The position numbers were made by a program, and so were the translations under genes. 64,000 nucleotides of DNA from Candidatus Parcubacteria bacterium (GTDB taxonomy: Bacteria; Patescibacteriota; Patescibacteriia; CAIXNZ01): the NCBI GenBank assembly GCA_026395685.1, contig JAPLYG010000018.1, forward strand, positions 288-64,287, given 5' to 3'. Positions 7,061 through 58,930 of this stretch are shown here, piece after piece (within the stretch, counting starts at the first letter, position 1; each line of letters begins with the position of its first letter). The notes under the pieces were generated by a model that was given only the letters and a program-made list of their open reading frames with translations, was not told the DNA's origin and ran no database searches.

Positions 7061-7215
7061 TCAAATAATCAATAAACAATAATCAATAAACAAACAAACT
7101 GTTTATAATTACTAATTTCTAAATTCTAAAATTTAGCATTTGAATTTGGGAATTTGATATTGTTTGATGATTGTTGCTTGATTATTGGTAATTTAATTTA
7201 AATTTTATACTTAAA
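7061..7215. repeat. AT-rich ~150-bp imperfect palindromic intergenic element, copy A (5' of fusA)
   Basis: Left arm aataatcaataaacaataatcaataaacaaac, centre ctaaattctaaaatttag, right arm tgtttgatgattgttgcttgattattgg. The arms are reverse complements of each other. Copies B, C and D are listed below. Confidence 0.7.
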
Positions 7216-9441: not shown

Positions 9442-9825
9442 ATGTCCGAAAAACAAGTTTCTTTTTGGCAGACAGCGACAAATGTAGAAAAGATTATCAA
9501 TTCAATTTTAACTCTCATTCTGAATCTTAAAGGACAGCTCATCCCCAACCATCCGTCAGCGATCTATCTGGTTTTTCCTCCGAATGAGCCTAAAAAGGCA
9601 GATCTGTACTTTTCTCCGCAGGCCAAGCTTCAACAGGAGGCGGATATTCTTTTGAGAAGAATCGAGCTGCCGGAAGGCATTTTGATAAATGAGCTTTTAG
9701 GCCTAGCCTCAGTAAGGCTTAATCAACTGTTGCAAGTATACTACAGTCCTAGCAGAAGCATATATTTGCTGGAAACTGAATACCGTGAAGGCGGTCTGAT
9801 GATTAATATGATTAGGAAAGGTTAA
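9442..9825 (+). CDS. Hypothetical protein (island gene, strong SD)
   Basis: AAAGGAGGG lies 6 nt upstream of the ATG. I recognise no domain. It is followed by its own terminator at 9835..9864. Confidence 0.5.
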   Translation: MSEKQVSFWQTATNVEKIINSILTLILNLKGQLIPNHPSAIYLVFPPNEPKKADLYFSPQAKLQQEADILLRRIELPEGILINELLGLASVRLNQLLQVYYSPSRSIYLLETEYREGGLMINMIRKG

Positions 9826-9834
9826 TTGTTTTTC

Positions 9835-9864
9835 AACCACCCAAAAAGGGGTGGTTTTATTTAT
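9835..9864 (+). terminator. Rho-independent terminator
   Basis: aaccaccc-aaaaa-ggggtggtt hairpin followed by a T-run. Confidence 0.7.
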
Positions 9865-9987
9865 GGCCGCAATATTTTGTATTTTGTACTATGTGTATAA
9901 AAAGTGCATAAACCTCGGGATAATTATGTGTATAACTATGTGTATAAGCATGTTGAAAATTTGTTTATAATTAGCCTAGAAATGGCT

Positions 9988-10016
9988 TGACGCAATCTGT
10001 AAATAATTATACAATA
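9988..10016 (+). promoter_or_regulatory. Sigma70-like promoter (TTGACG-N17-TACAAT)
   Basis: Consensus-like hexamers with a 17-nt spacer. Drives the short unit that ends at the terminator 10144..10175. Confidence 0.5.
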
Positions 10017-10143
10017 CAATCACGAACCCTACTTGATTACTGAGTTAAGTATTTCTAATCTCAATTTTTTTGGGATTGGTATTTGGCTCAGTGTCCTAAG
10101 CGGGGTTTTTTGTTGGATAAAATTTTATGGAGGAGAACTTTAA

Positions 10144-10175
10144 AGGAAACACCACGCTGTTTCCTTTTTGTTTTG
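10144..10175 (+). terminator. Rho-independent terminator closing a ~150-nt unit that contains an SD plus a 23-codon ORF
   Basis: aggaaaca-ccacgc-tgtttcct hairpin followed by a T-run. Upstream, GGAGGAG-ATG 10127 opens the ORF MEENFKGNTTLFPFCFVHCRLGR. Confidence 0.55.
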
Positions 10176-10279
10176 TTCACTGTCGTTTAGGAAGGTAATT
10201 AGGATGCTTAAGAGTTTTAAGGGATATTGGCAGATTAACGCAGTAACCAGCCAAAGAAGTAGAAAGGGGGAAGTCTAAA

Positions 10280-11158
10280 ATGGTAGCGACCAAGCTCGTG
10301 ATGAATAATCAGATCCCCAGAGTTTTCAAAAACCTGGATCCTGAAACTCAGCAACTCGCGCAAGCGATTTGCGGCCACAAAGTCAACGGCATAAATGTGC
10401 ATCTGAAGCATTTGGCTGAAAACCTCAGACGTTCGGAAATGATTATTTGGGTGACCAAACGGCTCATTTCGGATGAGGCCCTTGGCGTCAACTGGGAGCA
10501 TTTGCTGGAGGATATTACTGAACAATGCCTCAAACCGTTCCACGAAGAAACCTACCGCCATCTTAAGCGTATGCACCAGATCGTGGCGGAACAGTTGAAA
10601 TTGCTGGAGCATCAAAAGCCTGAACAGCTGGATGACTTTGGCTGTGAAGACTTCCGTACTATGCATCATTTTGAACTGACTCCGGAAGATCAACAAAATC
10701 TGAAATGGGCTGCTGCTTTCCATGATTTGGGGCGTATGTGTTATCCAGTTTCTTTCTGGAATACGCCAGGTCGATTCAGCCAGAAACAGCGAGAGCAGCT
10801 TGAGTTCCATGCTCGGAATTTTTACTTCCTGGGAGAAATGCTTAATGTTTGCCAGGAGGTAATCGCCCTGTCAGTATTGCATCATTATCCCAATAAGGGC
10901 TATCCTGATAACGGTATTATTGCTAAGTTAAGGCCCTTTTTGGATCAGCCGAAATTTCAGTACATGCTGAAATGGCTGGTTACTAACGATGTTTACGGCG
11001 GTGCGACCGACAAGCGCAGTTACCGGGATCAAATCTGGACTCACGAACAAGTGATCCAGCAAACTATGCCTGTGGAAATGGCTCGCGTAGGCCTGGGTTG
11101 GGTGCCTTTTATTCAGGCGCTAAAACAATCCGGACAAAGAGTCGTTTGCCCAGCTTAA
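10280..11158 (+). CDS. Stand-alone HD-GYP-type phosphohydrolase (candidate cyclic-dinucleotide phosphodiesterase)
   Basis: Motifs AAAFHDLGR, PGRFSQKQREQLEFH, HHYPNKGYPDNG (HHExxDGxGYP-like) and NDVYGGATDKRSYRD. Preceded by AAAGGGGGAAG. Coding G+C is visibly higher than in fusA or tuf. Confidence 0.7.
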   Translation: MVATKLVMNNQIPRVFKNLDPETQQLAQAICGHKVNGINVHLKHLAENLRRSEMIIWVTKRLISDEALGVNWEHLLEDITEQCLKPFHEETYRHLKRMHQIVAEQLKLLEHQKPEQLDDFGCEDFRTMHHFELTPEDQQNLKWAAAFHDLGRMCYPVSFWNTPGRFSQKQREQLEFHARNFYFLGEMLNVCQEVIALSVLHHYPNKGYPDNGIIAKLRPFLDQPKFQYMLKWLVTNDVYGGATDKRSYRDQIWTHEQVIQQTMPVEMARVGLGWVPFIQALKQSGQRVVCPA

Positions 11159-11261
11159 CCCTTCAAAGGGCCCCCTTCTACTCAGCTCTATTGTTGGGAG
11201 GAGAGGGCCCTTGACTTTCTTTTCGATTTAAGTTAAGTTATATATAGTTTTTTAGAATTTT

Positions 11262-11325
11262 TGTCCGCCAGGGGCGGGTTCCCGCCATAGGCGGGCAGGC
11301 TGCCTTTGGCGGACAAACTTTTTTT
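11262..11325 (+). repeat. GC-rich palindromic unit, copy 2, acting as a terminator
   Basis: gtccgccaggggcgggttcccgccataggcgggcaggctgcctttggcggac followed by TTTTTTT. Confidence 0.7.
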
Positions 11326-11330
11326 ATTTT

Positions 11331-11642
11331 ATGATCAACTTGCAAAGAATTTTAGATCTTATACGCAAAACAGGGGATAAATATATTTTTGAAGATGAAA
11401 ATAATGGCATGTTTGTAGTTATGTCTTTGCCTGATTATGAAAATTATATTTTTAAAAATAATCAGCTGAAAGACTTATCAGAGGAAGAGCTTTTAAATAA
11501 AATAAATAAAGATATCGCCATCTGGAAAGCTACCCAGGAGGACAAAACATTGGCTGAAAACTGGCATGATTTGCCCCTGGAAGAAAAAAAATCATCAGAA
11601 GATGATCAATACTATTTTGAGCCTGTTGAGGATGAGGAATAA
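11331..11642 (+). CDS. Small acidic protein, possibly a Phd/YefM-like antitoxin fold (orphan)
   Basis: The N-terminus ...GMFVVMSLPDYENY resembles the Phd/YefM core, and the C-terminus is acidic. No toxin partner is adjacent. Native low GC, no SD. Confidence 0.3.
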   Translation: MINLQRILDLIRKTGDKYIFEDENNGMFVVMSLPDYENYIFKNNQLKDLSEEELLNKINKDIAIWKATQEDKTLAENWHDLPLEEKKSSEDDQYYFEPVEDEE

Positions 11643-11781: not shown

Positions 11782-12969
11782 ATGGCAGAAAAATACGAAC
11801 GTAAAAAGCCCCATGTTAACGTCGGTACAATCGGTCACGTTGACCATGGAAAAACCACGTTAACAGCTGCAATTTTAAATTATATTAACGCTATTGGCGG
11901 CAAAGCGCAGCAAAAAAGTGTTGCTCAGATTGATGCAGCCCCAGAAGAAAAAGAACGTGGTATTACTATTGCCACTGCTCACGTTGAATATGAAACTGAA
12001 AAAAGGCACTATGCCCACGTTGATTGCCCTGGCCATGCTGATTATATCAAAAATATGATTACTGGCGCGGCACAAATGGATGGCGCTATTTTGGTTGTAG
12101 CTGCGACAGATGGTCCGATGCCTCAAACTCGTGAACATATTTTATTAGCAAGACAGGTAGGCGTACCTTCAATTGTTGTATTCTTAAATAAGGTTGATCA
12201 GGTTTCTGATCCGGAACTGATAAGTTTAGTTGAAGAAGAAGTTCGTGAATTATTGAAAAAATATGAATATCCAGGTGATGAAACTCCTATTATCAGAGGC
12301 TCAGCTTTGAAGGCCTTGGAAAATCCTAAAGGAGAAGATGGCAAATGCATTCAACAGCTTTTAGATGCTTTGGATAGCTTTATTCCTGAACCAAAGAGAG
12401 AGATTGATAAGCCTTTCTTAATGCCGGTGGAAGATGTTTTCTCTATTGAAGGACGCGGTACTGTAGTTACTGGTAAAATTGAAAGAGGTAAAATCAAGGT
12501 TTCTGAAGAAATTGAAATTGTTGGTCTCAAACCCACTCAAAAAACAGTAGTTACTGGTATTGAAATGTTTAATAAATCATTAGATGAAGGTATGGCTGGT
12601 GACAATGCCGGCTTATTATTGAGAGGTACTAAAAAGGAAGATGTAGAAAGAGGCCAAGTTATTGCTAAGCCAGGATCAATTACGCCTCACACTGAATTTG
12701 AAGCAGAGGTTTATATTTTAACCAAAGAAGAAGGTGGCAGACATAAACCATTTTTTAAAGGATATAAACCGCAATTTTATATCAGAACAACTGACGTTAC
12801 GGGTGAAATTGAAATTTTAGGCGGCGCTGAAATGGTTATGCCGGGCGATACCATCCATTTAAAGGTAAAATTAATTGCTCCCGTTGCTTTGGAAGAAAAA
12901 GGTAAACTTGCCATTCGTGAAGGCGGCAAAACAGTTGGTGCTGGCGTGGTAGTTAAAATTATTGCTTAA
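11782..12969 (+). CDS. tuf: Elongation factor Tu
   Basis: [26 protein letters not shown]... The track ORF starts at an upstream in-frame GTG. ATG 11782 matches the EF-Tu N-terminus. Confidence 0.95.
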
Positions 12970-12981
12970 GTGAATAGGGTA

Positions 12982-13016
12982 AACCCCCGCCCCCAAAAAA
13001 GGGGCGGGGTTTTATT
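12982..13016 (+). terminator. Rho-independent terminator after tuf
   Basis: acccccgcccc-aaaaaa-ggggcggggt followed by a T-run. Confidence 0.8.
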
Positions 13017-13071
13017 CCCGAATAAAATTAAAAAATAGTTAAATAACCTAATTAAAATTAATTAATAGTTC

Positions 13072-13404
13072 ATGTCTAAGATGGAAAAGACAAAAGAAGA
13101 AAAACAGAAAATCAGAATTAAAATCCGGGCATACGATCATAAAATAATTGATCAGTCAGTCAGGACAATTATGGATACAGCAACCAGAACAGGAGCCCAA
13201 ATTTCAGGGCCCATTCCCTTGCCTGTTGAAAAGAAAAAGTACACAGTTTTAAGCTCTACATTTGTTCATAAAAATGCTCGTGACCAATATGAAATGCGCG
13301 TCCATAAGAGATTAGTGGATATTATTGAGCCAACACCGGCAACTATCGAAGCTTTGACGAATTTGAATTTGCCAGCCGGGGTTGATGTTGAAATAAAAAT
13401 GTAA
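13072..13404 (+). CDS. rpsJ: 30S ribosomal protein S10
   Basis: S10/NusE family similarity over the full length. Confidence 0.95.
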
Positions 13405-13731
13405 GCCTTGACAAGTAAACTGAATTTCGCTAAGCTTATACTAGGTTTAAAAATTTTTGATTTTTTGAAATTTTTAACTTTTTAGATGTAAAGAAAGCTT
13501 CCCTGATATAGGGAATAACCTTTATATTTAGCGAGTTAATTGAGGAGACATTAATTTCCAAATAAAAAATAAATCCAGAACATCTTTACTAATCAGGCTG
13601 CTTTTTTTAATTTTAATCTGGATTTGAGTACCAGATTTTTTATTTCTAAAAATTTTTAATTGGCAATAGGAAGGTTGAAATTAAGTGAAGATTATTTCAA
13701 GTTTCTAATTTCCAGTAAGATTAAATATATT

Positions 13732-26608: not shown

Positions 26609-27484
26609 ATGAAAAAAATGATAGACTTAGTACAACTTCCGGAAAATGTGATAATTCCAAATTTTGAAAGGTTAGCGGATTTGCTTAAAATATTTAAAGA
26701 ACAGGGTAAAGATAAAATTCATGTTTTAGCTGATTTTGATCGTACTTTGACTAAAGCGATTGTTGCAGGGCAAAAAATGCCTTCTATTATTTCTATCTTG
26801 CGCGATGGACGATTTCTAACTCCTGAATATGCCCAAAAAGCTCATAAGCTGTTTGATTATTATCATCCCTTTGAAATTGATCTAAATTTAGGTTTGGCGG
26901 ATAAAAAGAAAAAGATGGAGGAATGGTGGCGTAAACATTTTGAGCTATTGCTTAAGTCTGGTTTGAGCAAAAAAGAAATCAGCGAAGTAGCCCAAGACCC
27001 TAGAATCCAATTGCGGCCGGGCGCAGAAGAACTCTTAAAAGAACTTAATCAACAAAAAATTCCTTTGGTGATAATGTCATCGGCGGGATTGGGGACTGAA
27101 TCTATTTCTTTGGTTTTACAGAGAGAAAAAAGCCTTTATGACAATATTAATATTATTTCCAATGAGTTTGAATACGACCAAAGCGGCCAAGCGATTAAGG
27201 TCAAAGAGCCGATTATCCATACTTTAAATAAGGATGAAACAATGATCCAACAATTTCCGGCTTATCAGGCCGTTAAAAACCGGCCTAATGTTATTTTGTT
27301 AGGTGATAATTTGGAGGATGTGGGTATGGTTGATGGGTTTGATTATGATAATTTATTGAGGATTGGATTTTTGAACGAAAATGTTGATAGAAACTCGGAA
27401 ATTTACAAGAAAAATTTTGATGTAGTGATAATAAATGATGGGGGGATGGAGTTTATTAATATAATATTGAAAGAAGTTATATGA
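26609..27484 (+). CDS. HAD-superfamily pyrimidine 5'-nucleotidase (UMPH-1-like)
   Basis: The DFDRTLT motif I and the overall length and pattern resemble the cytosolic 5'-nucleotidase III family. Confidence 0.6.
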   Translation: MKKMIDLVQLPENVIIPNFERLADLLKIFKEQGKDKIHVLADFDRTLTKAIVAGQKMPSIISILRDGRFLTPEYAQKAHKLFDYYHPFEIDLNLGLADKKKKMEEWWRKHFELLLKSGLSKKEISEVAQDPRIQLRPGAEELLKELNQQKIPLVIMSSAGLGTESISLVLQREKSLYDNINIISNEFEYDQSGQAIKVKEPIIHTLNKDETMIQQFPAYQAVKNRPNVILLGDNLEDVGMVDGFDYDNLLRIGFLNENVDRNSEIYKKNFDVVIINDGGMEFINIILKEVI

Positions 27485-28016: not shown

Positions 28017-28799
28017 ATGTCACGAACTTACACCACTACCGGAATTATTTTGAAACGCCGAGACTATCAGGAAAATGATAGGCTCTTTTGTCTATATACC
28101 AAGGATTTTGGCAAGATTGAAGTGGTAGCTCGAGGCACAAAAAAAATTACCAGTAAGCTGAAGGGATATTTGGAACCTTTTTATCTGGTTAAGCTGATGA
28201 TTGCTAAAGGCAAGGTAATTGATAAACTGGCAAATTGCAATTCTATTAAGTGTTATGAAAATTTAAGAAACGATCCGACACTTTTAGGCTTTGGTCTAAT
28301 AAATTATCTTGCAGAAGGAACAGACGGCTTGATTTCCGGGCATACTTCACAAAGCGATAAATTTGAATTGCTTTTGGAAGCATTGGATATCATGGAACAG
28401 GAAATTATTAAAGATTTGCCTGAAAAAAAAGAACGCATGCAATTTTTAGCCAATATTTATTTTATTAAATTGCTTGGACTTTTGGGTTATCAGCCGGAAA
28501 TACATCGTTGTGTCCTCTGCCACAAGGGAGTATTACTGACAAAAAATGTTTTTGATTTTTCTAAAGGCGGCCTAATTTGTGAGGACTGCAAAAAGGTTTG
28601 CCTCATTGAGGATTATATCCGTGTTTCTGACAGCGTGATTAAGCTTTTACAATTGGCAAAGGAAAAGCCGCTTGAGTATTTCAGGAATTTAGCAATTGAA
28701 GCTAATGAGCTGAACGAATTTAACGGAGTTGGGGAAAAATTGCTTTTAATTAATATGGAGAAACCGATAAAGTCACTGGAATTTTTTAGCTCAATTTGA
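28017..28799 (+). CDS. recO: DNA repair protein RecO
   Basis: RecO N-terminal OB fold plus a CxxC...CxxC zinc finger (CVLCHK...CEDC). Confidence 0.85.
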   Translation: MSRTYTTTGIILKRRDYQENDRLFCLYTKDFGKIEVVARGTKKITSKLKGYLEPFYLVKLMIAKGKVIDKLANCNSIKCYENLRNDPTLLGFGLINYLAEGTDGLISGHTSQSDKFELLLEALDIMEQEIIKDLPEKKERMQFLANIYFIKLLGLLGYQPEIHRCVLCHKGVLLTKNVFDFSKGGLICEDCKKVCLIEDYIRVSDSVIKLLQLAKEKPLEYFRNLAIEANELNEFNGVGEKLLLINMEKPIKSLEFFSSI

Positions 28800-28844
28800 T
28801 AGCTTAGATGAATTAAAATTTATAACTTTATTTAGCGAAAAGTT

Positions 28845-28887
28845 CATCTTGACGCTGTCGCTCGCGAGCGACAGGGTTGACAGGGCG
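28845..28887 (+). terminator. Terminator after recO
   Basis: ctgtcgctcgcgagcgacag hairpin followed by a T9 run. Confidence 0.6.
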
Positions 28888-28895
28888 ATTTTTTT
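28867..28895 (+). promoter_or_regulatory. Promoter TTGACA-N17-TAAGGT (island promoter 1 of 3 sharing this architecture)
   Basis: Exact 17-nt spacer. The identical TAAGGT -10 recurs at 29502..29530 and 32160..32188. Confidence 0.45.
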
Positions 28896-28957
28896 TTGTT
28901 AAGGTCAAGTAAATATTGGAGTAATCTTCCCATTAAAACTAGTCAAAGGAGGGGACT

Positions 28958-29257
28958 TTGGAGATTTTAAAGGTGATAGCGGCAAAGTTGGATAAAGCCT
29001 TTTTGTCCGGAGGTCATTCAAAATTCTTTACGGTTATTGATTTGGTTTTTAAAAAAGATCAGATCTTATCCGAAGAAGATGAAGTAGCCTTACTGGAGTG
29101 GATTCGGGCAGAAATAAAGCCGGAGTGGACTTATATTTGCTGTAATCGAGCCTGGAAAGAAGGCCCCAAGTTTAAGGCCTTTTTGCATCTTTATTGTTTT
29201 GACACGGAACAGAAAATGTATCAGCAGTTGCTAAAAGAATTTAACGTTTTACGATAA
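28958..29257 (+). CDS. Hypothetical protein (island gene, TTG start 5 nt after AAGGAGGGG)
   Basis: Strong SD. I recognise no domain. Confidence 0.45.
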   Translation: MEILKVIAAKLDKAFLSGGHSKFFTVIDLVFKKDQILSEEDEVALLEWIRAEIKPEWTYICCNRAWKEGPKFKAFLHLYCFDTEQKMYQQLLKEFNVLR

Positions 29258-29288
29258 GAGAAGGATCTTTTTAGTGAAAGGAGGGAAT

Positions 29289-29423
29289 ATGGAGGATTCA
29301 TCTGATTATACAGAAGCCAAAAAGGAAGACAAAAAAGGCCGGCGTAAGAAAAAGAAACCGGATAACCGAAAAAAAGAACTGCGCAAAAACTGGAAAACTA
29401 GGTGTGCGGCAAGAAGAATATAA
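29289..29423 (+). CDS. 44-aa highly basic small protein (Lys/Arg-rich), missed by the ORF track
   Basis: AAAGGAGGGAAT-ATG. MEDSSDYTEAKKEDKKGRRKKKKPDNRKKELRKNWKTRCAARRI. Terminator at 29438..29466. Confidence 0.5.
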   Translation: MEDSSDYTEAKKEDKKGRRKKKKPDNRKKELRKNWKTRCAARRI

Positions 29424-29437
29424 ATATTTTGGAATTC

Positions 29438-29466
29438 AAGGACGTTCTCAATGGCGTCCTTTTTTA
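29438..29466 (+). terminator. Rho-independent terminator
   Basis: aaggacg...cgtcctt hairpin followed by TTTTT. Confidence 0.7.
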
Positions 29467-29501
29467 ATTCGAGGAAGGCTGAAATACGAATATTTCGATT
29501 G

Positions 29502-29530
29502 TTGACTTATAGAGGATATCTTGCTAAGGT
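29502..29530 (+). promoter_or_regulatory. Promoter TTGACT-N17-TAAGGT (island promoter 2)
   Basis: Exact 17-nt spacer. Sits upstream of pyrK. Confidence 0.45.
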
Positions 29531-29579
29531 TTGGGTACAAAAAGTTATTTGAAAAATCAAGATAAAGGGAGGATGGGAC

Positions 29580-30386
29580 ATGGAAACATGGAAGATTCAG
29601 GTTGGTGAGGCTGTCGTGGTTTCTAATATTCTTAAAGCCAAAGATACTTGGGAATTAGAATTAAACCTAGGTAATGACCTTGATGTGACTGCTTTTTTGC
29701 CCGGTCAGTTTGTCTGCTTAGCGCCTTTGGATCCGAGCTCAACTATGGCCAGGCCATTCAGTATTGCCAGTATTAGTACTTTCAACGGCACTTTTTCCTT
29801 GCTGTATAAAGTCATTGGAAAAAACACGGAATTGATGGCCAGGCTTGCAGTCGGAGAAAAGGTAAAGTTCTGGGGACCTTTGGGTCAGGGATTTCTACCT
29901 AACACGGATGAGTATGATGAAGTCTGGCTGATAGGCGGTGGAATCGGCATTGCTCCGCTGATTTTCTATGAAAAGGTCGTTTCGGAATTTCAGGGCGGGA
30001 TTGTCAGGGTTTTTTATGGCAATAAAACCGGGGCAGAAATTATTCCCTTGGATTTATATTGCCAAGAACCTTTGATAATAGTCACTGACGATGGCTCCAT
30101 TGGCTGTCAAGGTTTTGTAACTGATGTTGTACAGGCCTACATGAAAGTGGCCAATGAAAAAAAGATTTTAGTCATTACCTGCGGTCCCAAAGTCATGATG
30201 CGCAAAGTTGCGGATATCTGCCAGCAGGCAGGCCAGGATTGCTATGTGATTTTGGAAACAATCATGGCCTGCGGCCTCGGAGTTTGTCTGGGCTGTTCAA
30301 TCAAGACGTCTTCGGGCATGAAACGCATTTGCCATGATGGACCGGTTTTTCCGGCTAAGGAGGTAATCTGGGATGAGCTCAGTTAA
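29580..30386 (+). CDS. pyrK: Dihydroorotate dehydrogenase electron-transfer subunit (FAD/2Fe-2S)
   Basis: FNR-like fold plus a C-terminal CGLGVCLGC...C cluster. SD AAAGGGAGGA. Confidence 0.85.
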   Translation: METWKIQVGEAVVVSNILKAKDTWELELNLGNDLDVTAFLPGQFVCLAPLDPSSTMARPFSIASISTFNGTFSLLYKVIGKNTELMARLAVGEKVKFWGPLGQGFLPNTDEYDEVWLIGGGIGIAPLIFYEKVVSEFQGGIVRVFYGNKTGAEIIPLDLYCQEPLIIVTDDGSIGCQGFVTDVVQAYMKVANEKKILVITCGPKVMMRKVADICQQAGQDCYVILETIMACGLGVCLGCSIKTSSGMKRICHDGPVFPAKEVIWDELS

Positions 30387-31287
30387 TCTTGGCGTTGAGA
30401 TTGGCGGTATCAGACTGAAAAATCCGATTATGCCGGCCTCAGGAACCTTTGGCAACGGAGAAGAATTTGCCGGCATTCAGGGCATGGATTTAAGTGCGCT
30501 GGGAGCGCTGGTTACCAAGGGTACAACTCTGGAACCGCGAGCTGGCAATCCGCAGCCACGGATCAGAGAAACAGCCAGCGGCATGATCAACTTTATAGGC
30601 CTGGCAAATCCGGGTGTTAAAGCTTTTATTGAAGAAAAATTGCCGTTTATGGCTCAGTTCGAGACTCCGATCATTGTCAATGTTTCCGGTTTTACGCTTA
30701 ACGAATATGTTCGGATGGCTGAGTTACTTGATCAGGTGCCATCTGTTGCAGGATTGGAAATAAATATTTCCTGTCCCAATGTAGAAGGCGGCAGAATTCC
30801 TTTTGGCAGTGATGCTCAAATCGCTGCCAATGTTATTCGAGCGGTGCGCAGGGCTACGAAATTGCCTTTGATCGTTAAGCTGACGCCGAACGTAACTGAT
30901 ATTGTGCCGATTGCTAAAGCAGTAGTTGATGTCGGAGCCAATGCCATTTCCATGATCAATACGGTCCGAGCTGCATTTATTGACCGAGGCAAAATCATCC
31001 AGGGCGGGCTTTCTGGCCCGGCTATCAAACCAATTGCCCTATGTCTAATCAATCAGGTGTCTCAGGCAGTCAATGTGCCGATAATAGGCATGGGCGGAAT
31101 CAGTACCCTGCAGGACATTTTTGATTTTTTCCAGGTCGGTGCGTCAGCTGTTGCCATTGGCACAGCGAATTTCAAAAATCCGCTGGTGATGATGGCGCTG
31201 ATTGACCAGCTGGAAAAATATTGTTTGGAACACGGCCTAGCCAATATTGACCAGGTCAAAGCAAGGATAAAAGGAGGAAAAGGGTGA
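30373..31287 (+). CDS. pyrD: Dihydroorotate dehydrogenase catalytic subunit (class 1B)
   Basis: ...IMPASGTFGNG..., ...NISCPN... and GGIST motifs. Confidence 0.9.
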   Translation: MSSVNLGVEIGGIRLKNPIMPASGTFGNGEEFAGIQGMDLSALGALVTKGTTLEPRAGNPQPRIRETASGMINFIGLANPGVKAFIEEKLPFMAQFETPIIVNVSGFTLNEYVRMAELLDQVPSVAGLEINISCPNVEGGRIPFGSDAQIAANVIRAVRRATKLPLIVKLTPNVTDIVPIAKAVVDVGANAISMINTVRAAFIDRGKIIQGGLSGPAIKPIALCLINQVSQAVNVPIIGMGGISTLQDIFDFFQVGASAVAIGTANFKNPLVMMALIDQLEKYCLEHGLANIDQVKARIKGGKG

Positions 31288-32045
31288 TGAAGGAAATTGC
31301 TAATGTCAACGAAAGGTTGATCGTGGCAGCGGACTTTGAGCTGGAAGGCAATGACGTACAGGCGGCGATAAATGTTCGCCAAAAGGTGCTGCAACTTGCC
31401 GATGCTCTCCACGGAACAGGCGTGATCATCAAGGTCAACTCCATCTTACGAGCCGGGGGATACAGCCTGGTCGAAGAGCTCCATGAGCGCGGACTTAAGG
31501 TCATGGCTGATCTCAAGCTGGTGGATATTCCCCAGACCATGAAGATCGACGGACAGCTTCTGGCTTGCTATAAGCCGGAGATTGTCACTGTCATGGCCAA
31601 TGCCGGAATCGATGGCCTGTCAGCCTTGGTTAAGGCTATGCCTGCGACGCAGGTTTTAGCCGTGACGGTGCTGACATCGTTGGATGAAGAAGAATGCCAG
31701 CAGATCTACTGCTGCTCAACCAAAGCCGGCGTGCTCAGATTTGCGCGCATGGCTCAAGCCGCTGGTTGCGCAGGCCTGGTGCTTTCACCCAAGGAAGTGG
31801 ACGTGATCAGGAAACGGCCGGCGTTGAACGCGCTTTCCCTCAATACTCCGGGCATCCGGCCCACCTTCGGCGTGGTCAAAGGCGATGACCAAAAACGGAC
31901 TGACACTCCGGAAGCAGCTTTTCTGGCCGGCGTGGATCGGATCGTGGTCGGACGTCCGATTACCCAGGCGGAAAATCCGCAGGTAGCAGTGCAATTGATC
32001 TTGGAGGAGATCAAGGTCGCACTTGAGAAAAAGGAAAAGAAATAA
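31284..32045 (+). CDS. pyrF: Orotidine-5'-phosphate decarboxylase
   Basis: ADLKLVDIPQTM active-site motif (D-K-x-x-D-I-P-x-T). The highest G+C in the window. Confidence 0.8.
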   Translation: MMKEIANVNERLIVAADFELEGNDVQAAINVRQKVLQLADALHGTGVIIKVNSILRAGGYSLVEELHERGLKVMADLKLVDIPQTMKIDGQLLACYKPEIVTVMANAGIDGLSALVKAMPATQVLAVTVLTSLDEEECQQIYCCSTKAGVLRFARMAQAAGCAGLVLSPKEVDVIRKRPALNALSLNTPGIRPTFGVVKGDDQKRTDTPEAAFLAGVDRIVVGRPITQAENPQVAVQLILEEIKVALEKKEKK

Positions 32046-32046
32046 C

Positions 32047-32082
32047 AGCCAAGGGATTCCCATCCGGGAGTCCCTTTTTTAT
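32047..32082 (+). terminator. Terminator after pyrF
   Basis: agggattcccatccgggagtccct followed by a T-run. Confidence 0.6.
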
Positions 32083-32159
32083 TTCGTTAATCGTTTTTCG
32101 CTATCGATATTCGTTTCATTTATCGTTATACGTCTAACGTAACGAACTTTGATAACTGA

Positions 32160-32188
32160 TTGACGAATTAAACGAGGTTTGATAAGGT
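32160..32188 (+). promoter_or_regulatory. Promoter TTGACG-N17-TAAGGT (island promoter 3)
   Basis: Exact 17-nt spacer. Sits upstream of pyrE. Confidence 0.45.
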
Positions 32189-32239
32189 GGAGGAAATTAG
32201 GGATTGTTTTTAAAGCAAAAAAGAAGAAGGAGGAAAGTG

Positions 32240-33007
32240 ATGAAAGAATTAGCGGTTATTGAGACAGTGAAAAACGGAGGCGTCTTTGCGCTAAATTCAA
32301 GTGACTTTGAAGGGCGGCGCATGACCATCAACGAGGTGGTGGCGATTTTGAGCGCCTTTGATGCCTTTTGGCAATATCAAGGCGATCCTTGCGTCCAAAA
32401 GCCACATGCGCTACTGAAGTCGGGCAAGCACAGCAACGGTTTCATCAATTGCAAGGAGGTGCTGGATTATCCGCTGTTGTGCATGTTGCTGGCGCATGAG
32501 ATGCTCAAAGAAGCCAAATCACATCTTGCTCAGGATGTTCTGGCCACAATAGGCGGGGTGGCTGCTTCAGCCTATTCGGCCTTGGATCCCGGCTTTTGCC
32601 TGGCTTGGCTGTTGAGCAAAGAGTACAATCACCGGATCAAAGCCTTTAAGGCTGAAAAAGACGATAAGGGCAATCCGACCATCATTCGTGGTGGGATCGA
32701 CCCCAGCTTGAATGTCTTGGTCATCAACGAACTGATGACCACGGCCAGCGGCTCAACTTGGGAGACCAAACAAGCTGTCTTGAAAACCAATGGCGACAAG
32801 CCGGCGCCTAAAGTGCTGGATAAAGCGATCGTGTTGATGCACAGATCAAAGGATTTCCAGTTGCCTGACGGCTCACTTGTTGTTCCAGTCTTTCATTTCG
32901 ACATTGAGAACTTCGAGCCGGAAAACTGCCCTTACTGCCAAGTTGGTTCGCAGGCTATCAAGCCCAAAGTCGGCAACAACTGGAATATTTTACACGGCTG
33001 GGCCTAG
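32240..33007 (+). CDS. pyrE: Orotate phosphoribosyltransferase with a C-terminal extension
   Basis: LKSGKHSNGFINCKEVLDYP resembles the OPRTase loop, and VLVINELMTTASGST is the PRPP-binding motif. I chose the start at ATG 32240 after GGAGGAAAGTG. The extra ~70 aa include CPYC. Confidence 0.7.
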   Translation: MKELAVIETVKNGGVFALNSSDFEGRRMTINEVVAILSAFDAFWQYQGDPCVQKPHALLKSGKHSNGFINCKEVLDYPLLCMLLAHEMLKEAKSHLAQDVLATIGGVAASAYSALDPGFCLAWLLSKEYNHRIKAFKAEKDDKGNPTIIRGGIDPSLNVLVINELMTTASGSTWETKQAVLKTNGDKPAPKVLDKAIVLMHRSKDFQLPDGSLVVPVFHFDIENFEPENCPYCQVGSQAIKPKVGNNWNILHGWA

Positions 33008-33024
33008 CGCTATTCAAACAAATT

Positions 33025-33057
33025 GGCCGCCCTCTGCGTTATGGGGGGCGGTCTTTA
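33025..33057 (+). terminator. Terminator after pyrE
   Basis: ccgccc...gggcgg hairpin followed by a T-rich tract. Confidence 0.5.
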
Positions 33058-33089
33058 AATTTGACTTTTTATTGAATTTTGCTACAATA

Positions 33090-33298
33090 TAATCACCAAA
33101 AGCCGTTTGACCCTACTAACAGTAGGGGAGGCACGGGAAGAAACCATTTGGGAGTAGAACCCGTCGTAAACCTGCGTTAAGGGTAAATTAAGAGGCTCTC
33201 CTCGGAGGGAATCAAGGTGGTACCGCGAAGAAAAAACTTCGTCCTTGAATCTATCAGTATTTGGTTTTTTGATAGGTTTAGAGACGAAGTTTTTTTAA
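33090..33298 (+). promoter_or_regulatory. T-box riboswitch leader of aspS
   Basis: AATCAAGGTGGTACCGCGAAG matches the T-box core AAUUAGGGUGGNACCGCG. It is followed by the terminator aacttcgtc...gacgaagtt plus T7 (33236..33298). Confidence 0.6.
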
Positions 33299-33299
33299 T

Positions 33300-33430
33300 A
33301 ACCAATCATCAATAATCAAAATCCAAACAATATCTAAATTATAATAACTAATATTCAAACCGTTTAGTGATTAGGAATTGGTTATTTGTATTTGTTTGAT
33401 GATTGAGACTTGATGATTGATTATTAATCA
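33300..33430. repeat. AT-rich imperfect palindromic intergenic element, copy B (between the T-box terminator and the aspS ATG)
   Basis: caatcatcaataatcaaaatccaaacaa ... ctaaattataa ... ttgtttgatgattgagacttgatgattgattatt. Confidence 0.65.
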
Positions 33431-33439
33431 CAAAAATCT

Positions 33440-35215
33440 ATGTTAAGAACACAAACCTGCGGCGAATTAACTAAAAAACAAGTCGGTAAAAAAGCTGCCT
33501 TATGCGGCTGGGTAAATTCCAGACGCGATCATGGCGGTATTATTTTTATTGACTTGCGTGACCGTTATGGCTTGACCCAGATTAAGTTTGATCCCAGAAT
33601 TTCTCAGCCAGCCTGGGATGAAGCCAATAATGTAAGGCCAGAATGGGTGTTAAAAGTAACCGGTGAAGTTTTAGCGCGTCCCAAGGATATGATAAATCCC
33701 AAAATGGAGACCGGAGAGATTGAAATGGCAATTACTGAAATTGAAATTTTAACTCAGGCCAAAACTCCGCCTTTTGAAATTGATCAGGATAAAAATGTAA
33801 ATGAGGATTTGAGATTGAAATACCGATTTTTAGATTTGAGGCACAGTCGATTGCAAAAAATTATTGCTGATCGGGATAAATTGATTACCTATGTACGAGA
33901 ATATTTTCATAAAAAAGAGTTCATTGAAATTCAAACACCGATTTTAGCAAACTCTTCTCCTGAAGGGGCTCGTGATTATTTAGTTCCTTCAAGAATACAT
34001 CCTGGAACATTTTATGCCTTGCCTCAGGCACCCCAACAGTTTAAACAATTATTAATGGTCTCTGGTTTTGACCGCTATTTTCAGATTGCGCCTTGTTTTC
34101 GTGACGAAGATCCGCGATCTGACCGCCATCCCGGAGAATTTTATCAGATTGACTTAGAAATGTCTTTTGTGGAACAGGAAGATGTCTGGCAGCTGGTTGA
34201 ACCTTTGATGGTTGAACTGACTGAAAAATTTTCTGAGAAAAAAATTATTGCCAAGCCTTTCCCAAGAATTACTTACAAAGAAGCTTTGGAAAAGTACGGA
34301 TCTGATAAGCCGGATTTGCGTTTTGATATGGAAATTAAGTCTATTTCAGAAATGGTTAAAGCTTGCGGATTTTCTGTCTTTAGCGAAGCTATTAAAAACG
34401 GCGGTGTAGTTCATGCTTTGAAAGTTGAGGCCGATGGCAAGTTTTCCAGAAAGGATATTGATGAAATAACTGAAATTGCCAAAGCAAAAGGCGCTAAGGG
34501 TTTAGCTTATATTATTGTCAAAGAAAAAAATGAATTACAGTCGCCAATAGTCAAATTTTTAGGCGATGATCTTTCTCTTAAATTAGTTAAGGAATTGAAG
34601 GCGAAAGTCGGGGATATTATCTTCTTTGGTGCAGATGTTTGGAAGACCGTTTGTAGCGCTCTGGGAGCAGTAAGAAACGAATGTGGCAGCCGTTTAGGGC
34701 TAAAAGATCCTAATAAGGCAGCCTGGCTATGGGTGGCTGATTTTCCCATGTACGAGTATTCTGAAATTGAACCGGGACGTATTGATTTTTCCCATAATCC
34801 ATTTTCCATGCCGCAGGGTGGGCTGAAAGCACTGATGGAAATGAATCCTTTAGATATTTTGGCACATCAGTATGATTTGGTCTGTAATGGCTTTGAAATC
34901 TCCTCAGGTGCCATTCGAAATCACCAGCCGGAAATTATGTATAAAGCTTTTGAGATCGCCGGCTATACCAAAGAAGAAGTTGATGCTAAATTTGGCCATA
35001 TGATTAAAGCCTTTGAATTTGGCGCGCCCCCTCATGGCGGCATTGCTCCGGGTTTGGACAGGTTATTAATGGTTCTCTGGGATTTACCGAGCATCCGCGA
35101 TATTTATGCTTTTCCGAAAAATGGTTCTGCACAGGATGCTATGTTAGGCGCGCCAAGCGAGGTTAGCGCTAAGCAACTTAAAGATCTTCATATTAAATTG
35201 GACTTGGATAAATAG
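33440..35215 (+). CDS. aspS: Aspartyl-tRNA synthetase (bacterial type)
   Basis: N-terminal OB fold and class II motifs 1-3 (FRDED, GxGxDR), about 590 aa. Confidence 0.95.
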   Translation: MLRTQTCGELTKKQVGKKAALCGWVNSRRDHGGIIFIDLRDRYGLTQIKFDPRISQPAWDEANNVRPEWVLKVTGEVLARPKDMINPKMETGEIEMAITEIEILTQAKTPPFEIDQDKNVNEDLRLKYRFLDLRHSRLQKIIADRDKLITYVREYFHKKEFIEIQTPILANSSPEGARDYLVPSRIHPGTFYALPQAPQQFKQLLMVSGFDRYFQIAPCFRDEDPRSDRHPGEFYQIDLEMSFVEQEDVWQLVEPLMVELTEKFSEKKIIAKPFPRITYKEALEKYGSDKPDLRFDMEIKSISEMVKACGFSVFSEAIKNGGVVHALKVEADGKFSRKDIDEITEIAKAKGAKGLAYIIVKEKNELQSPIVKFLGDDLSLKLVKELKAKVGDIIFFGADVWKTVCSALGAVRNECGSRLGLKDPNKAAWLWVADFPMYEYSEIEPGRIDFSHNPFSMPQGGLKALMEMNPLDILAHQYDLVCNGFEISSGAIRNHQPEIMYKAFEIAGYTKEEVDAKFGHMIKAFEFGAPPHGGIAPGLDRLLMVLWDLPSIRDIYAFPKNGSAQDAMLGAPSEVSAKQLKDLHIKLDLDK

Positions 35216-47204: not shown

Positions 47205-47370
47205 ACTGATTGTCAAATTCGGGTTTTCGAACCCTTCATTGTTAATAATCAATAACCAATAACACAATCATCAAACAATTCCTAATAACTAAATCTAAAT
47301 ACTAAAATTAGTTATTAGAATTTAAATATTTTTTATTGTTTGATGTTTGATTATTGATGTTTGGTGATTT
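47205..47370. repeat. AT-rich imperfect palindromic intergenic element, copy C (topA leader)
   Basis: aataatcaataaccaataacacaatcatcaaacaa ... ctaaatctaaatactaaaattag ... ttgtttgatgtttgattattgatgtttgg. A minus-strand TTGACA-N17-TATTAAT promoter lies at about 47196..47224. Confidence 0.65.
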
Positions 47371-49944: not shown

Positions 49945-50080
49945 TTTAAAAATCCTCAATAATCAAGTGCCAATAATCAAGCAATATCAAATAAATAAAT
50001 CCTAAATTCTAAACCTTTGGTAATTATATTTTTAAATTTAGAATTTGTTGGATGATTGATTATGGTGTATTGATTATTAA
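49945..50080. repeat. AT-rich imperfect palindromic intergenic element, copy D (pth leader)
   Basis: ctcaataatcaagtgccaataatcaagcaatatcaa ... ctaaattctaaa ... ttgttggatgattgattatggtgtattgattatt. Confidence 0.65.
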
Positions 50081-56910: not shown

Positions 56911-58887
56911 ATGCAAAGTAAAAAACTCTTGGCGTTTTTATTCAGCCGGGAGAAAACAAACAAACTTGTCAGAAAAACTGCCAAAGCATTATTTTTTGTA
57001 ATTGCTCTTATGGCGGTTTTTTTGTTTTCTAATCATCCGGCTTTGGCTCAGGATACTTATGGCTTAAACAGCTTTTCTGATAGCGGATTAGCGACCGCCA
57101 ACTTAATGGCCATAATTGCCCGAATTATTAATGGCTTTTTGATTTTGCTCGGCCTGGTAGCAGTAATCATCATTCTTTACGCAGGTATTTTATGGATGAC
57201 TGCTTCTGGCAAGGAAGAGCAGGTAATGAAAGCCAAAAAGACTTTGATTAACGGGGTAATCGGTTTAATAATTATTCTGTTATCTTATGCTTTTGTCAGA
57301 CTGTTATTCGGTATTTTAGATCTTCAATTCCAAAACAACGAGGGCGGTCCCGGCGGCGGGGGAGGCGGGTATGAACCAGGCACCGGAGCTTTAGGTGCAG
57401 GTATAATTCAGAGCCATTATCCGACGCGCAATGCTAAGGACGTACCGCGTAACACCAAGATCGCCATCACCTTTAAAGAGCCGATGGATTTAGCTTCTAT
57501 TATTAGTGATACCAATAATAATAATATTCTTGGTGATTGCGTTGATTCTGATGATGCTAATGATACCATTGATGTGATTGATGCCAATAATAACGGTAAG
57601 TTTGACGCCGGGGATTTTTCGGAATGCGACTTGATTAATCCTGCCAGTATTAAAATCAGAAAAAATGCAGATGATCCGGCTGTTGGTCCGTTTGTTGATT
57701 TTGTAAAAGCCATGGTTACTCTTGATAAAAAAACTTTTGTCTTAAAGCCTGTTACTTATTTGGGCAGTGCGGCAGAAAAAGTAGATTATACTGTAAGCCT
57801 GACATCTAATATTAAGAAAGCTTCAGGCGATGCGGCTTTTGGCAGTTCAGCCGGCTATAAATGGACTTTTGAGGTTTCCACTTTCTTAGATACAACTCCG
57901 CCTCAGGTACTGTCTGTTATTCCCAAAGCTGCTGCCAATCCACTGGAAAAGCTTTATGCAAGGAATGTAGTAATTCAGGTTAATTTTAATGAAGCCATGG
58001 ATCCGCTGGCTTTGAGCGATAAGCTCGAAATTGAGGGTGGCGGCACGACAGGAGCGGCATTAAAAAACACTTCTAAGGAGATAATGCCGATTAAGGTCGG
58101 AACCAATTATGTTGCTGGAGAATGGTATTTTAGCAACCAATACCGTACAGATGAATTTATTACTAATTCACCCTGCGGTGTAAATTCCTGCGGAAAAACC
58201 ATTTATTGCCTGCCTGGTTTATCTGAAATTACCACGCTTTTAAAAGCGGCTACTTTGGCCACTGCAGGTTCTGCTGAAGCTTTAGAAAAGCCTGATTTAT
58301 TGAGTAGTAAAGGGACTTTATATGACGGTTTAACTGATATGTGCGGCAATTCTTTGAACGGCAATAAGGATAACACGCCTCAGGGACCGGCCGGGACATA
58401 TAATTTAAATTCTCTTTCCGGAGGCGGTGATAATGCCATCTGGAAATTCAATACGAATGACACTGTTGATTTGATTCCGCCCTTGATTGAATCCAGAAAC
58501 CCTGATCAGTCAGAAGAAGTTAGCCCGAAGGCTGATTTAAATTTGTTATTCAGTAAATTACTTATGTTTAATTCTTTGGTTCAGGGAAGCACTCTCACTC
58601 TTGTTCAGACTGATGATCCTACAGCCTATTGGTTTGAAAAAAATAATGATGATCTGACGGATAAAACAACAGTGATTATTAAAACAAACGGCTTGAAGCC
58701 AGATGGGGAAGAATATCCGATTATTGTCGGTTCGGGCACCAAGGATCTTTACCAAAATTGCTTTATGCCGCCGGCGGATACCCAAAATTGTATTCGCGTT
58801 CCGGTTGCGGGACAGCCTGGCCAGTATGAGCCGAGCAATGTATCGGGTGAATGGAAGGGTACAAAACCGAATTGCGATTTAAGATAA
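56911..58887 (+). CDS. Large secreted protein: signal peptide + VirB2/TrbC-like T4SS-pilin module + Gly linker + Big_5 (SbsA-type) Ig-like domains
   Basis: Signal peptide ending PALA|QD. The next ~90 aa form two hydrophobic helices separated by SGKEEQVMKAKKT, a TrbC/VirB2 pilin topology. This is followed by GGPGGGGGGYEPG and ...PPQVLSVIPKAAANP...VIQVNFNEAMD... Ig-like repeats. Confidence 0.6.
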   Translation: MQSKKLLAFLFSREKTNKLVRKTAKALFFVIALMAVFLFSNHPALAQDTYGLNSFSDSGLATANLMAIIARIINGFLILLGLVAVIIILYAGILWMTASGKEEQVMKAKKTLINGVIGLIIILLSYAFVRLLFGILDLQFQNNEGGPGGGGGGYEPGTGALGAGIIQSHYPTRNAKDVPRNTKIAITFKEPMDLASIISDTNNNNILGDCVDSDDANDTIDVIDANNNGKFDAGDFSECDLINPASIKIRKNADDPAVGPFVDFVKAMVTLDKKTFVLKPVTYLGSAAEKVDYTVSLTSNIKKASGDAAFGSSAGYKWTFEVSTFLDTTPPQVLSVIPKAAANPLEKLYARNVVIQVNFNEAMDPLALSDKLEIEGGGTTGAALKNTSKEIMPIKVGTNYVAGEWYFSNQYRTDEFITNSPCGVNSCGKTIYCLPGLSEITTLLKAATLATAGSAEALEKPDLLSSKGTLYDGLTDMCGNSLNGNKDNTPQGPAGTYNLNSLSGGGDNAIWKFNTNDTVDLIPPLIESRNPDQSEEVSPKADLNLLFSKLLMFNSLVQGSTLTLVQTDDPTAYWFEKNNDDLTDKTTVIIKTNGLKPDGEEYPIIVGSGTKDLYQNCFMPPADTQNCIRVPVAGQPGQYEPSNVSGEWKGTKPNCDLR

Positions 58888-58930
58888 ATTATCAATTCTC
58901 AATCCCTAACATATAAAAATCTCAAATCCC

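Follow-up and report, generated by a model that had tools for sequence, protein, structure and literature searches.

A probable reduced and mosaic remnant of a resident pyrimidine operon between recO and aspS of a Parcubacteria bacterium

In Bacillus subtilis, the pyr operon has the gene order pyrR-pyrP-pyrB-pyrC-carA-carB-pyrK-pyrD-pyrF-pyrE. Some host-dependent microbes possess partial pyrimidine pathways and salvage orotate, and the Patescibacteria, also known as candidate phyla radiation (CPR), are usually described as unable to make nucleotides, their host dependence being a central open question. Operons may also become mosaic through in situ xenologous gene displacement, a concept that was reportedly put forward by Omelchenko et al. 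in Genome Biology in 2003. Here, we analyzed a stretch of 64,000 nucleotides (nt) of contig JAPLYG010000018.1 from a Candidatus Parcubacteria bacterium (the window, designated W; loci of related genomes are designated L001, L002 etc.), which carries the genes pyrK, pyrD, pyrF and pyrE between recO and aspS. Comparison with related genomes indicates that this segment is probably the reduced, mosaic remnant of a pyrimidine operon that was resident at this site.

PyrE and PyrF of W are 100% identical to database entries of a Candidatus Parcubacteria MAG (NTZ49_05245 and neighbouring locus tags). A scan at one genome per species returned 55 loci, essentially all from Patescibacteria. In eight species (L001/L003, L002, L004, L005, L006, L008, L010 and L061) the order ruvX-recO-pyrB-(small open reading frame, ORF)-pyrC-pyrK-pyrD-pyrF-pyrE was found, followed by aspS where the contig continues, and the operon of these relatives has the same GC excess, strong Shine-Dalgarno (SD) sites and TTGAC-N14-TGnTAAGGT promoters, together with intrinsic terminators. 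The nearest relative is L005, whose RecO shares 82% amino acid (aa) identity. Because eight species keep the operon in the recO-aspS slot, it is therefore resident at this site in a clade of Falkowbacteria/Buchananbacteria-like metagenome-assembled genomes (MAGs). The order B-C-K-D-F-E in the relatives and K-D-F-E in W is that of the Firmicutes-type operon, and the class 1B dihydroorotate dehydrogenase with its PyrK partner is likewise shared. In contrast to the Firmicutes operon, pyrR, pyrP and carAB are missing from the operon in W and its relatives, three promoter/terminator units replace the single attenuated transcript, pyrB and pyrC of the relatives are separated by a small basic ORF, and both of these genes are gone in W. 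Neither a PyrR-binding RNA family nor any other pyr leader was detected in 28700-33500 (Rfam, E ≤ 1), the locus contains no pyrR-like gene, and at the Rfam gathering threshold three tRNAs are the only matches in the window. The first-pass annotation had stated that the module encodes only the last steps of pyrimidine synthesis, and this holds throughout the 64 kb, in which there is no pyrB or pyrC and no ORF long enough for carB. The block comprises the following features, all on the forward strand:

28877..28905, forward: promoter P1, TTGACA-N17-TAAGGT with extended -10 (TGnTAAGGT), the former pyrB promoter; exact pattern match
28906..28957, forward: former pyrB 5' untranslated region (5'UTR) with SD AAGGAGG (28946-28952), now before orf99; from alignment to relatives
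28958..29257, forward: orf99, TTG-start ORFan of 99 aa in the place of pyrB, GC 0.38 (host-like)
29289..29423, forward: Lys/Arg-rich small ORF of 44 aa with its own SD (29278-29284), conserved in relatives
29438..29467, forward: intrinsic terminator homologous to the post-pyrC terminator; terminator scan
29502..29530, forward: promoter P2, TTGACT-N17-TAAGGT, for pyrK-pyrD-pyrF; motif also before pyrK in L001, L002, L005 and L008
29580..30386, forward: pyrK, electron-transfer subunit of class 1B dihydroorotate dehydrogenase, with FAD/NAD and 2Fe-2S domains
30373..31287, forward: pyrD, catalytic subunit of class 1B dihydroorotate dehydrogenase, overlapping pyrK by 14 nt
31284..32045, forward: pyrF, type-1 orotidine monophosphate (OMP) decarboxylase, start at GTG 31284 or ATG 31287
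32051..32082, forward: intrinsic terminator after pyrF, conserved in L005 and L058; terminator scan
32080..32159, forward: CpG-rich, CGTT/AACG-rich element of ~80 nt between the pyrF terminator and P3, abutting the P3 -35 box
32160..32188, forward: promoter P3, TTGACG-N17-TAAGGT, for pyrE; motif also before pyrE in L005
32240..33007, forward: pyrE, 255 aa, divergent Helicobacter/Thermus-type orotate phosphoribosyltransferase (OPRTase) of a Parcubacteria subfamily; predicted from profile and AlphaFold2 (AF2) model
33025..33060, forward: intrinsic terminator after pyrE, the end of the module; terminator scan

The region upstream of pyrK retains pieces of the longer operon. P1 shares 93-97% identity with the pyrB upstream regions of L005 and L001, and its motif precedes pyrB in seven relatives, while W 28848-28975 aligns at 70% to L010 1369-1500, ending at the pyrB start. 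The small ORF has its counterpart between pyrB and pyrC of the relatives, where it also possesses its own SD and where its stop codon overlaps the pyrC SD; W 29280-29424 shares 69-77% nt identity with the pyrB-pyrC spacers of L005, L001, L002 and L010. Further downstream, W 29434-29469 is 86% identical to L001 7090-7125, just past the pyrC stop, and from 29518 onward the pyrK promoter and pyrK itself follow at 72-79% identity to the relatives. Since promoter, leader, spacer ORF and post-pyrC terminator align to the relatives, the data indicate that pyrC was deleted in place to within ~10 nt of its ORF and that pyrB was replaced by ~330 nt containing orf99. The late-step-only state thus appears to have arisen by loss of pyrB and pyrC, not by import.

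We also considered that orf99, or the rest of 28906-29517, might be a decayed pyrB or pyrC. Sensitive blastn and tblastn comparisons with seven relatives detected nothing inside orf99 (best protein E 0.06), and the matches of this region comprised the promoter, leader, small ORF and terminator only, so that the possibility was rejected. Among 5.8 billion proteins, the only homologue of orf99 is orf99 itself, no Pfam or NCBIfam match was obtained, and an exact 29-mer of orf99 is absent from metagenome_contigs. The spacer ORFs of the relatives encode ~38-41 aa, and between W and L005 there are 8, 12 and 19 changes at codon positions 1, 2 and 3, respectively; because changes concentrate at third positions, the small ORF is consistent with a translated peptide. 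It had no match in a representative library of 1.8 billion sequences, which is a weak negative for a short ORF of low complexity. In the relatives, a terminator hairpin after pyrB, just upstream of the small ORF, pairs an SD-like arm (AGGAGGG) with an anti-SD-like arm (CCCTCCT), and this hairpin is conserved across species (L005 5602-5700, L001 5646-5700, L002 5561-5625, and the spacers of L004 and L006).

The same end state was encountered a second time. In L060, pyrB, pyrC and the small ORF are gone, and promoter-pyrK-pyrD-pyrF-pyrE are kept in the same slot of a 19.5-kb locus that bears no scars. By recO and aspS, L060 groups with the pyrBC-bearing L004/L006 subgroup, suggesting that its loss of pyrBC is independent of the loss in W. 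A ddl-like gene on the minus strand is inserted between pyrF and pyrE in L060.

The four remaining genes appear to differ in their histories. In W, pyrK and pyrD (29521-31291) are colinear with L005 over 1.78 kb at 78.9% identity, which compares to 77-79% for ruvX and recO. At the protein level, pyrK and pyrD share 76% and 85% identity with L005, with ratios of nonsynonymous to synonymous divergence (dN/dS) of 0.15 and 0.08, respectively (flanking genes 0.05-0.16), and both genes would therefore qualify as vertically inherited orthologues under purifying selection. For pyrF, nt similarity to L005 ends at 31291 and resumes at 32038, i.e. at the borders of the pyrF ORF, with both flanks aligning. 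PyrF of W is 39-45% identical to PyrF of the close relatives, which are 53-85% identical among themselves, whereas proteins 84-87% identical to PyrF of W are encoded in other pyr(BC)KDF operons, where pyrK and pyrD show less similarity to W. These data indicate that pyrF is a xenolog from within the Patescibacteria, exchanged at ORF boundaries. The pyrE gene is 89% (aa) and 88% (nt) identical to pyrE of L002, with a synonymous divergence (dS) of 0.30, and only 67% (aa) identical to the nearest relative L005; core genes of L002 are 51-67% (aa) identical to those of W (recO 66%), and core dS is at least 1 even to the closest relative. Hence, pyrE appears to be a recent import from within the Patescibacteria, an allele common to a distantly related Parcubacteria lineage.

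Other members of the clade give a similar picture. L004 and L006 are 95% identical in recO as opposed to 48% in pyrK and 60% in pyrD, and a type-2 PyrF of 301-320 aa occupies the pyrF slot of L008 (8198-9160) and L060 (6769-7674). We infer repeated in situ xenologous displacement within the operon, with transfer proceeding gene by gene within the phylum. As in mosaic operons, distant homologues take the place of single genes without a change in order or position (three forms of pyrF, pyrE, and pyrK/pyrD of L004/L006). In contrast to typical mosaic operons, replacement is unusually frequent in one small clade, the donors belong to the same phylum, the pyrF swap coincides with ORF boundaries, and the pyr operon keeps a stationary signature of SD usage and GC content at third codon positions (GC3) that is distinct from the host.

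The identities of the enzymes were assessed by profile and structure comparisons. PyrD scores above the cut-offs of NF005574 (362.7 bits, cut-off 269) and TIGR01037 (303.9 bits, cut-off 270), matches PF01180 with 251 bits and the solved class 1B PyrD proteins 5ue9 and 1ep1 with 296 bits, and retains NISCPN, aligned to NISCPN of 5ue9. The Cys of this motif is the catalytic base in class 1 enzymes, Ser taking its place in class 2. PyrK matches PF10418 (56.6 bits), PF00970 and PF00175 as well as the PDB entries 4ylf, 5ksw_B and 1ep3_B; its C-terminal Cys motif CGxGxCxGC...C aligns with 4ylf and 1ep3_B, and its score is below the NCBIfam equivalog cut-off (178 vs 219). PyrF matches PF00215 (129.8 bits) and TIGR01740 (124.3 bits, cut-off 92.3) and keeps the DxKxxD motif, DLKLVDIP being aligned to DLKLHDIP of a solved OMP decarboxylase. 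Judged by these comparisons, the family assignments of PyrD, PyrK and PyrF are firm.

PyrE is more divergent. It has no Pfam match, PF00156 included, and reaches 42.7 bits against TIGR01367, whose cut-off is 150.25. Its family profile matches the Helicobacter OPRTase in PDB 4paw_A with an E value of 4e-33 over residues 44-247, the CPxC tail included. The AF2 model has a mean predicted local distance difference test score (pLDDT) of 97 and a predicted template modelling score (pTM) of 0.92, and displays the type I phosphoribosyltransferase fold with OPRTase hood; in Foldseek, ranks 1-43 are all OPRTases with 4paw as the best match. The loop motif for phosphoribosyl pyrophosphate (PRPP) normally consists of two acidic residues followed by TTG/A-x-T/S; in PyrE it reads VLVINELMTTASGS, where TT-x-x-GS is kept. 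In all relatives the pyr operon ends with pyrE, and their loci showed no second pyrE gene. The 255-aa protein is thus predicted to be an OPRTase, and it is placed in a sister subfamily outside the curated TIGR01367 equivalog because it misses the curated sequence cut-off.

PyrE shares with the Helicobacter/Thermus OPRTases (PDB 4PAW, HP1257; TIGR01367, pyrE_Therm) the same predicted fold; the SG-x-HS-N hood motif and the CPxC...AIKPG tail at the C-terminus can be aligned, as can the region of the PRPP loop. In contrast to the 4PAW type, identity is only 21-28%, the score is below the TIGR01367 cut-off and PF00156 is not matched, ~20-50 additional N-terminal residues form three short helices in the AF2 model, and Asn replaces the first acidic residue of the PRPP motif, canonically E-D, in at least 90% of family members (NELMTT). 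The CPYC motif had previously been ascribed to an extra C-terminal extension of ~70 aa. However, the C-terminus of 4PAW and the end of the TIGR01367 model both align with the CPxC...IKPG tail, and what PyrE has in excess of both is mostly N-terminal, indicating that the CPYC tail is a trait of the Helicobacter/Thermus-type family and no add-on.

The composition of the block sets it apart from the remainder of the window. GC content in 1-kb windows amounts to 0.47, 0.54 and 0.47 at 30-33 kb, as compared to ~0.32-0.41 across most of W. The values for GC/GC3 are 0.45/0.47 for pyrK, 0.48/0.47 for pyrD, 0.55/0.64 for pyrF and 0.50/0.62 for pyrE, whereas recO has 0.36/0.35, aspS 0.40/0.35, and the ribosomal-protein genes have a GC3 of ~0.25-0.35. 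With a mean GC3 of 0.35 ± 0.05 for the other genes of the window, the module reaches z-scores of +2.1 to +5.3, and in tetranucleotide usage the strongest outlier of the window is 30001-33000 (r 0.71, z -3.1). Thus, a GC contrast that had been estimated by eye is borne out by computation, and a proposed tetranucleotide comparison points the same way. An SD on every module gene and mostly none nearby had also been described correctly: each of the six module ORFs is preceded by 5 nt or more that match AAGGAGGT, and among ~58 other ORFs of the window AAGGAGG was found only for ORF 9442-9825. Outside the pyr module and ORF 9442-9825, genes lack any SD, those of the ribosomal-protein operon included, and have A/T-rich upstream regions; for this reason, core genes of the organism appear to be initiated independently of SD sequences.

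The pattern TTGAC-N18-TAAGGT occurs three times in the window, each time on the plus strand (28877, 29502 and 32160), where 0.02 matches are expected; none of 100 shuffled windows reached three matches. The first-pass annotation had recognized these three identical architectures, although it placed the first at 28867 instead of 28877. A sigma-70 consensus scan of the window misses all three because TAAGGT fits only 3 of the 6 positions of TATAAT, and its overall promoter-like counts equal the shuffled expectation. The promoter claim therefore relies on the exact-pattern statistics and on conservation in relatives, in which the TAAGGT promoter is kept upstream of pyrB, pyrK and pyrE; it also precedes the type-2 pyrF of the distant L050. 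A fourth copy, TTGACT-N17-TAAGGT, is present in L008 before an SD-bearing ORF of 256 aa that is inserted downstream of aspS (12782-13595). Because three intrinsic terminators, with scan coordinates 29438-29461, 32051-32076 and 33025-33053, split the block, three transcription units are predicted to be left, i.e. orf99-small ORF, pyrK-pyrD-pyrF and pyrE.

The 136-nt stretch upstream of P3 contains 11 CpG and six CGTT/AACG words, and all CpG but one lie inside the ~80-nt element. This element is 83% identical to the region before the pyrK promoter and 78% identical to the region before the pyrE promoter of L005, and may represent a candidate operator or activator site. No further copy was found in the window. 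Copies with a palindrome-like core, CGTYWAACG, are located at L005 7128-7203 and 9840-9902 and at L058 ~2494-2548.

The compositional offset is not confined to W. In seven tabulated relatives, GC3 of nearly every pyr gene is ~0.05-0.25 above that of recO/ruvX, L008 pyrK alone being at flank level, and even in the very AT-rich L004 the pyr genes reach 0.29-0.36 as compared to 0.14-0.20 in the flanks. GC3 of pyrK and pyrD is alike in W, L005 and L001 (~0.43-0.52) despite a dS among them of ~1 or more; the offset is therefore stationary, not decaying. Across 44 Patescibacteria loci, pyr GC3 equals 0.86 x neighbour GC3 + 0.13 (r 0.73), with a positive offset in 32 of them, and the offset of W (+0.20) is among the largest. 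In 56 Patescibacteria loci, a 6-mer core SD was found before 78 of 112 pyr genes, as opposed to 51 of 703 others (70% vs 7%; odds ratio 29; Fisher p 6e-47), several of the 51 being type-2 pyrF genes missed by the probes. A tendency towards higher GC3 was also seen for other genes with an SD (median z +0.79). A single GC-rich donor was rejected as the source of the excess, as the offset is positive in GC-rich hosts too (e.g. 0.53 to 0.69, 0.56 to 0.72) and a background GC that would match was not seen in any carrier of the PyrE subfamily. Amino-acid composition alone was likewise rejected, the excess being strongest at third codon positions.

GC3 excess, SD sites and the special promoter would hence seem, with less certainty, to be properties of the pyr gene class and not a date stamp of recent import. 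Either a gene pool that circulates horizontally at the level of the phylum could be their cause, or a force acting on these genes specifically, for example selection or biased gene conversion. More speculatively, and with a rather low likelihood as a whole, the pyr genes of Patescibacteria might form a distinct exchangeable pool that relies on SD-led translation and is swapped as cassettes ending, where mapped, at ORF boundaries; GC-biased conversion or SD-linked selection rather than amelioration would maintain the offset, and the polybasic ORF of ~40 aa would serve as a device for translational coupling or regulation. A literature search on SD usage in Patescibacteria and on pyrimidine, orotate or dihydroorotate in CPR/Parcubacteria returned nothing relevant.

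According to the scenario that we consider probable, the ancestral state of the clade would have been pyrB-(small basic ORF)-pyrC-pyrK-pyrD-pyrF-pyrE between recO and aspS. In the lineage of W, pyrB would have been swapped for the 99-codon ORFan and pyrC deleted, with promoter, leader, SD, small ORF and pyrC terminator surviving; pyrK and pyrD would have been inherited vertically, pyrF exchanged for a distant Patescibacteria xenolog and pyrE recently replaced. From the family assignments, class 1B PyrK/PyrD would carry out NAD-linked conversion of dihydroorotate to orotate, PyrE is predicted to form OMP from orotate and PRPP, and PyrF would convert OMP to uridine monophosphate (UMP). Unless pyrB and pyrC exist elsewhere in the genome, the substrate for UMP, dihydroorotate or orotate, may, with about even odds, have to come from outside the cell. 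This idea is strengthened because L060 independently lost pyrBC yet keeps pyrKDFE, and other Patescibacteria loci frequently contain late-step-only clusters (pyrF-pyrE, pyrD-pyrF-pyrE). As in the partial pathways of host-dependent microbes, OPRTase and OMP decarboxylase are kept and early steps are gone; unlike there, PyrK/PyrD are retained in W, so that the pathway would be entered at dihydroorotate as well as at orotate, and the reduction is visible in progress, with scars.

Several observations weigh against this scenario. No orotate or dihydroorotate transporter was seen next to the module. The replacements were called from pairwise identities, dS and blastn breakpoints, and the dN/dS values average the whole divergence from L005 and cannot show selection after the deletion. 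The deletion itself might reflect variation between strains or, the genome being a MAG, a collapse during assembly. The analysis covered 64 kb, beyond which pyrB, pyrC and a source of carbamoyl phosphate might be encoded, so that scavenging is a prediction.

The first-pass annotation had interpreted the block as a horizontally acquired scavenging module, which amounts to a transfer of all four genes at once from a GC-richer, SD-using donor outside the CPR and their insertion between recO and aspS. The foreign-looking composition and SD usage (GC, GC3 and tetranucleotide contrasts with the flanks are real), the restriction to the steps from dihydroorotate to UMP, the possession of own promoters and terminators, and a role of horizontal transfer all stand. 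A single four-gene import is nevertheless very improbable: eight related species have the full pyrBCKDFE operon in this very slot, the similarity of pyrK and pyrD to the nearest relative equals that of recO and ruvX, and the pyrB promoter/SD, the intercistronic ORF and the pyrC terminator are still there as in-place scars of loss. Nor does an outside donor fit, since the named matches of the PyrE family are Patescibacteria in 90 of 90 cases and those of PyrF nearly all, which is the kind of affiliation that the annotation itself had named as evidence to the contrary. Neither an integrase nor a tRNA gene nor a repeat boundary flanks the block, which is bordered by recO and the aspS T-box leader, with no tRNA within 7 kb. 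With respect to the criteria for genomic islands, the block is atypical in composition; it is not absent from the same site in close relatives, its gene similarities are incongruent with the core for pyrF and pyrE and not for pyrK and pyrD (identity matrices, dS), and it carries no mobility signatures. Still more remote is a chimeric assembly or binning error that joined foreign DNA to a Parcubacteria contig. The source is a MAG and composition changes sharply at the block edges, but the same arrangement and compositional step recur in independent assemblies from different studies and samples, and homology to the relatives is unbroken from recO into the promoter and from pyrE into the aspS leader.

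Two further explanations accept a resident operon and differ from the scenario of a reduced, mosaic remnant in what became of the pathway. De novo synthesis might persist with a split operon, pyrB, pyrC and the carbamoyl-phosphate source having moved elsewhere. Only 64 kb of the genome were examined and pyr genes are scattered in many other Patescibacteria loci (pyrE alone, pyrF-pyrE pairs, pyrD apart), but in none of the eight close relatives have pyrB and pyrC left the operon, the scars resemble deletion and replacement in place instead of translocation, the window holds no pyrB or pyrC, and L060 shows the same loss within its 19.5-kb locus, so that we regard a split operon as unlikely. Less likely again is a relic in decay, in which the remaining pyr genes lost their function along with pyrBC and disabling mutations have yet to appear in them. 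Genome reduction is typical of Patescibacteria, dihydroorotate would be an unusual metabolite to scavenge, and an ORFan, orf99, now sits behind the pyrB promoter. Against this, the four ORFs are intact with catalytic motifs, SD sites, promoters and terminators, dN/dS is 0.08-0.22, pyrE is a recent intact import (dS 0.30), and late-step-only clusters are common in other loci of the phylum; moreover, retention of pyrKDFE in L060 without pyrBC and without scars implies long-term maintenance.

The enzymes and the operon are ordinary, and the interest of the locus, which is moderate, is in the scarred and recurrent reduction, the density of swaps and the phylum-wide SD/GC3 signature. Reduction of the pathway would be caught in progress here, with legible scars and the same end state reached twice, and predicts that dihydroorotate or orotate is taken from partners. 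The GC/SD island, which would be a stationary property of a gene class throughout the phylum and no proof of recent foreign acquisition, advises caution with composition-based calls of horizontal gene transfer in reduced genomes. The difference in SD usage between pyr genes and the rest (odds ratio ~29) bears on translation initiation in these organisms, and the repeated swaps within the operon bear on how accessory metabolism circulates among Patescibacteria.

Additional features were noted in the window and in the loci of relatives. Two genes upstream of the pyr operon, at 26609-27484, lies a gene for a UMPH-1-type pyrimidine 5'-nucleotidase (PF05822, E 5e-68) of host-like composition and without SD, and the same neighbourhood exists in L002, L004, L006, L008 and L061. 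Upstream of aspS, a T-box leader spans 33097-33249, with a terminator hairpin extending to ~33298. With 58 bits (E 3e-11) the leader stays under the Rfam gathering score of 93, since 76 model positions in stem I are represented by just 7 nt; the T-box sequence GGUGGUACCGCG and the terminator/antiterminator are present, and the leader is conserved in L001, L004 and L008.

An AT-rich imperfect palindrome of ~130 nt, whose two arms carry CAATAATCAA-type words and TTGATTATTG, respectively, folds into a long hairpin (z -3.1). Its four copies in the window (7064-7196, 33294-33427, 47242-47369 and 49951-50078) are intergenic, two of them directly before start codons (fusA, aspS). In relatives, it was found at L001 7124-7247, L002 7050-7185 and L008 2768-2898 as well as in L019 and L020, and it sits between pyrC and pyrK. 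It may be an element resembling miniature inverted-repeat transposable elements (MITE) or repetitive extragenic palindromes (REP), or a 5'UTR element.

An insert of ~2.3 kb between fusA and tuf (9442-11642) forms a second island with foreign-looking SD usage and GC. It comprises an ORF of 127 aa with a perfect AAGGAGG SD and an ORF of 292 aa (GC 0.47, GC3 0.52), neither of which has a Pfam match, and in addition a weak Phd/YefM-like antitoxin ORF. Finally, the window ends within an ORF of more than 1690 codons (~58930-64000), whose product carries an N-terminal signal/transmembrane segment; the GC of this ORF, 0.43-0.46, is above the window average, and the ORF is preceded by a protein of 658 aa with TrbC/VirB2 pilin-like and Big_5 domains (56911-58887).

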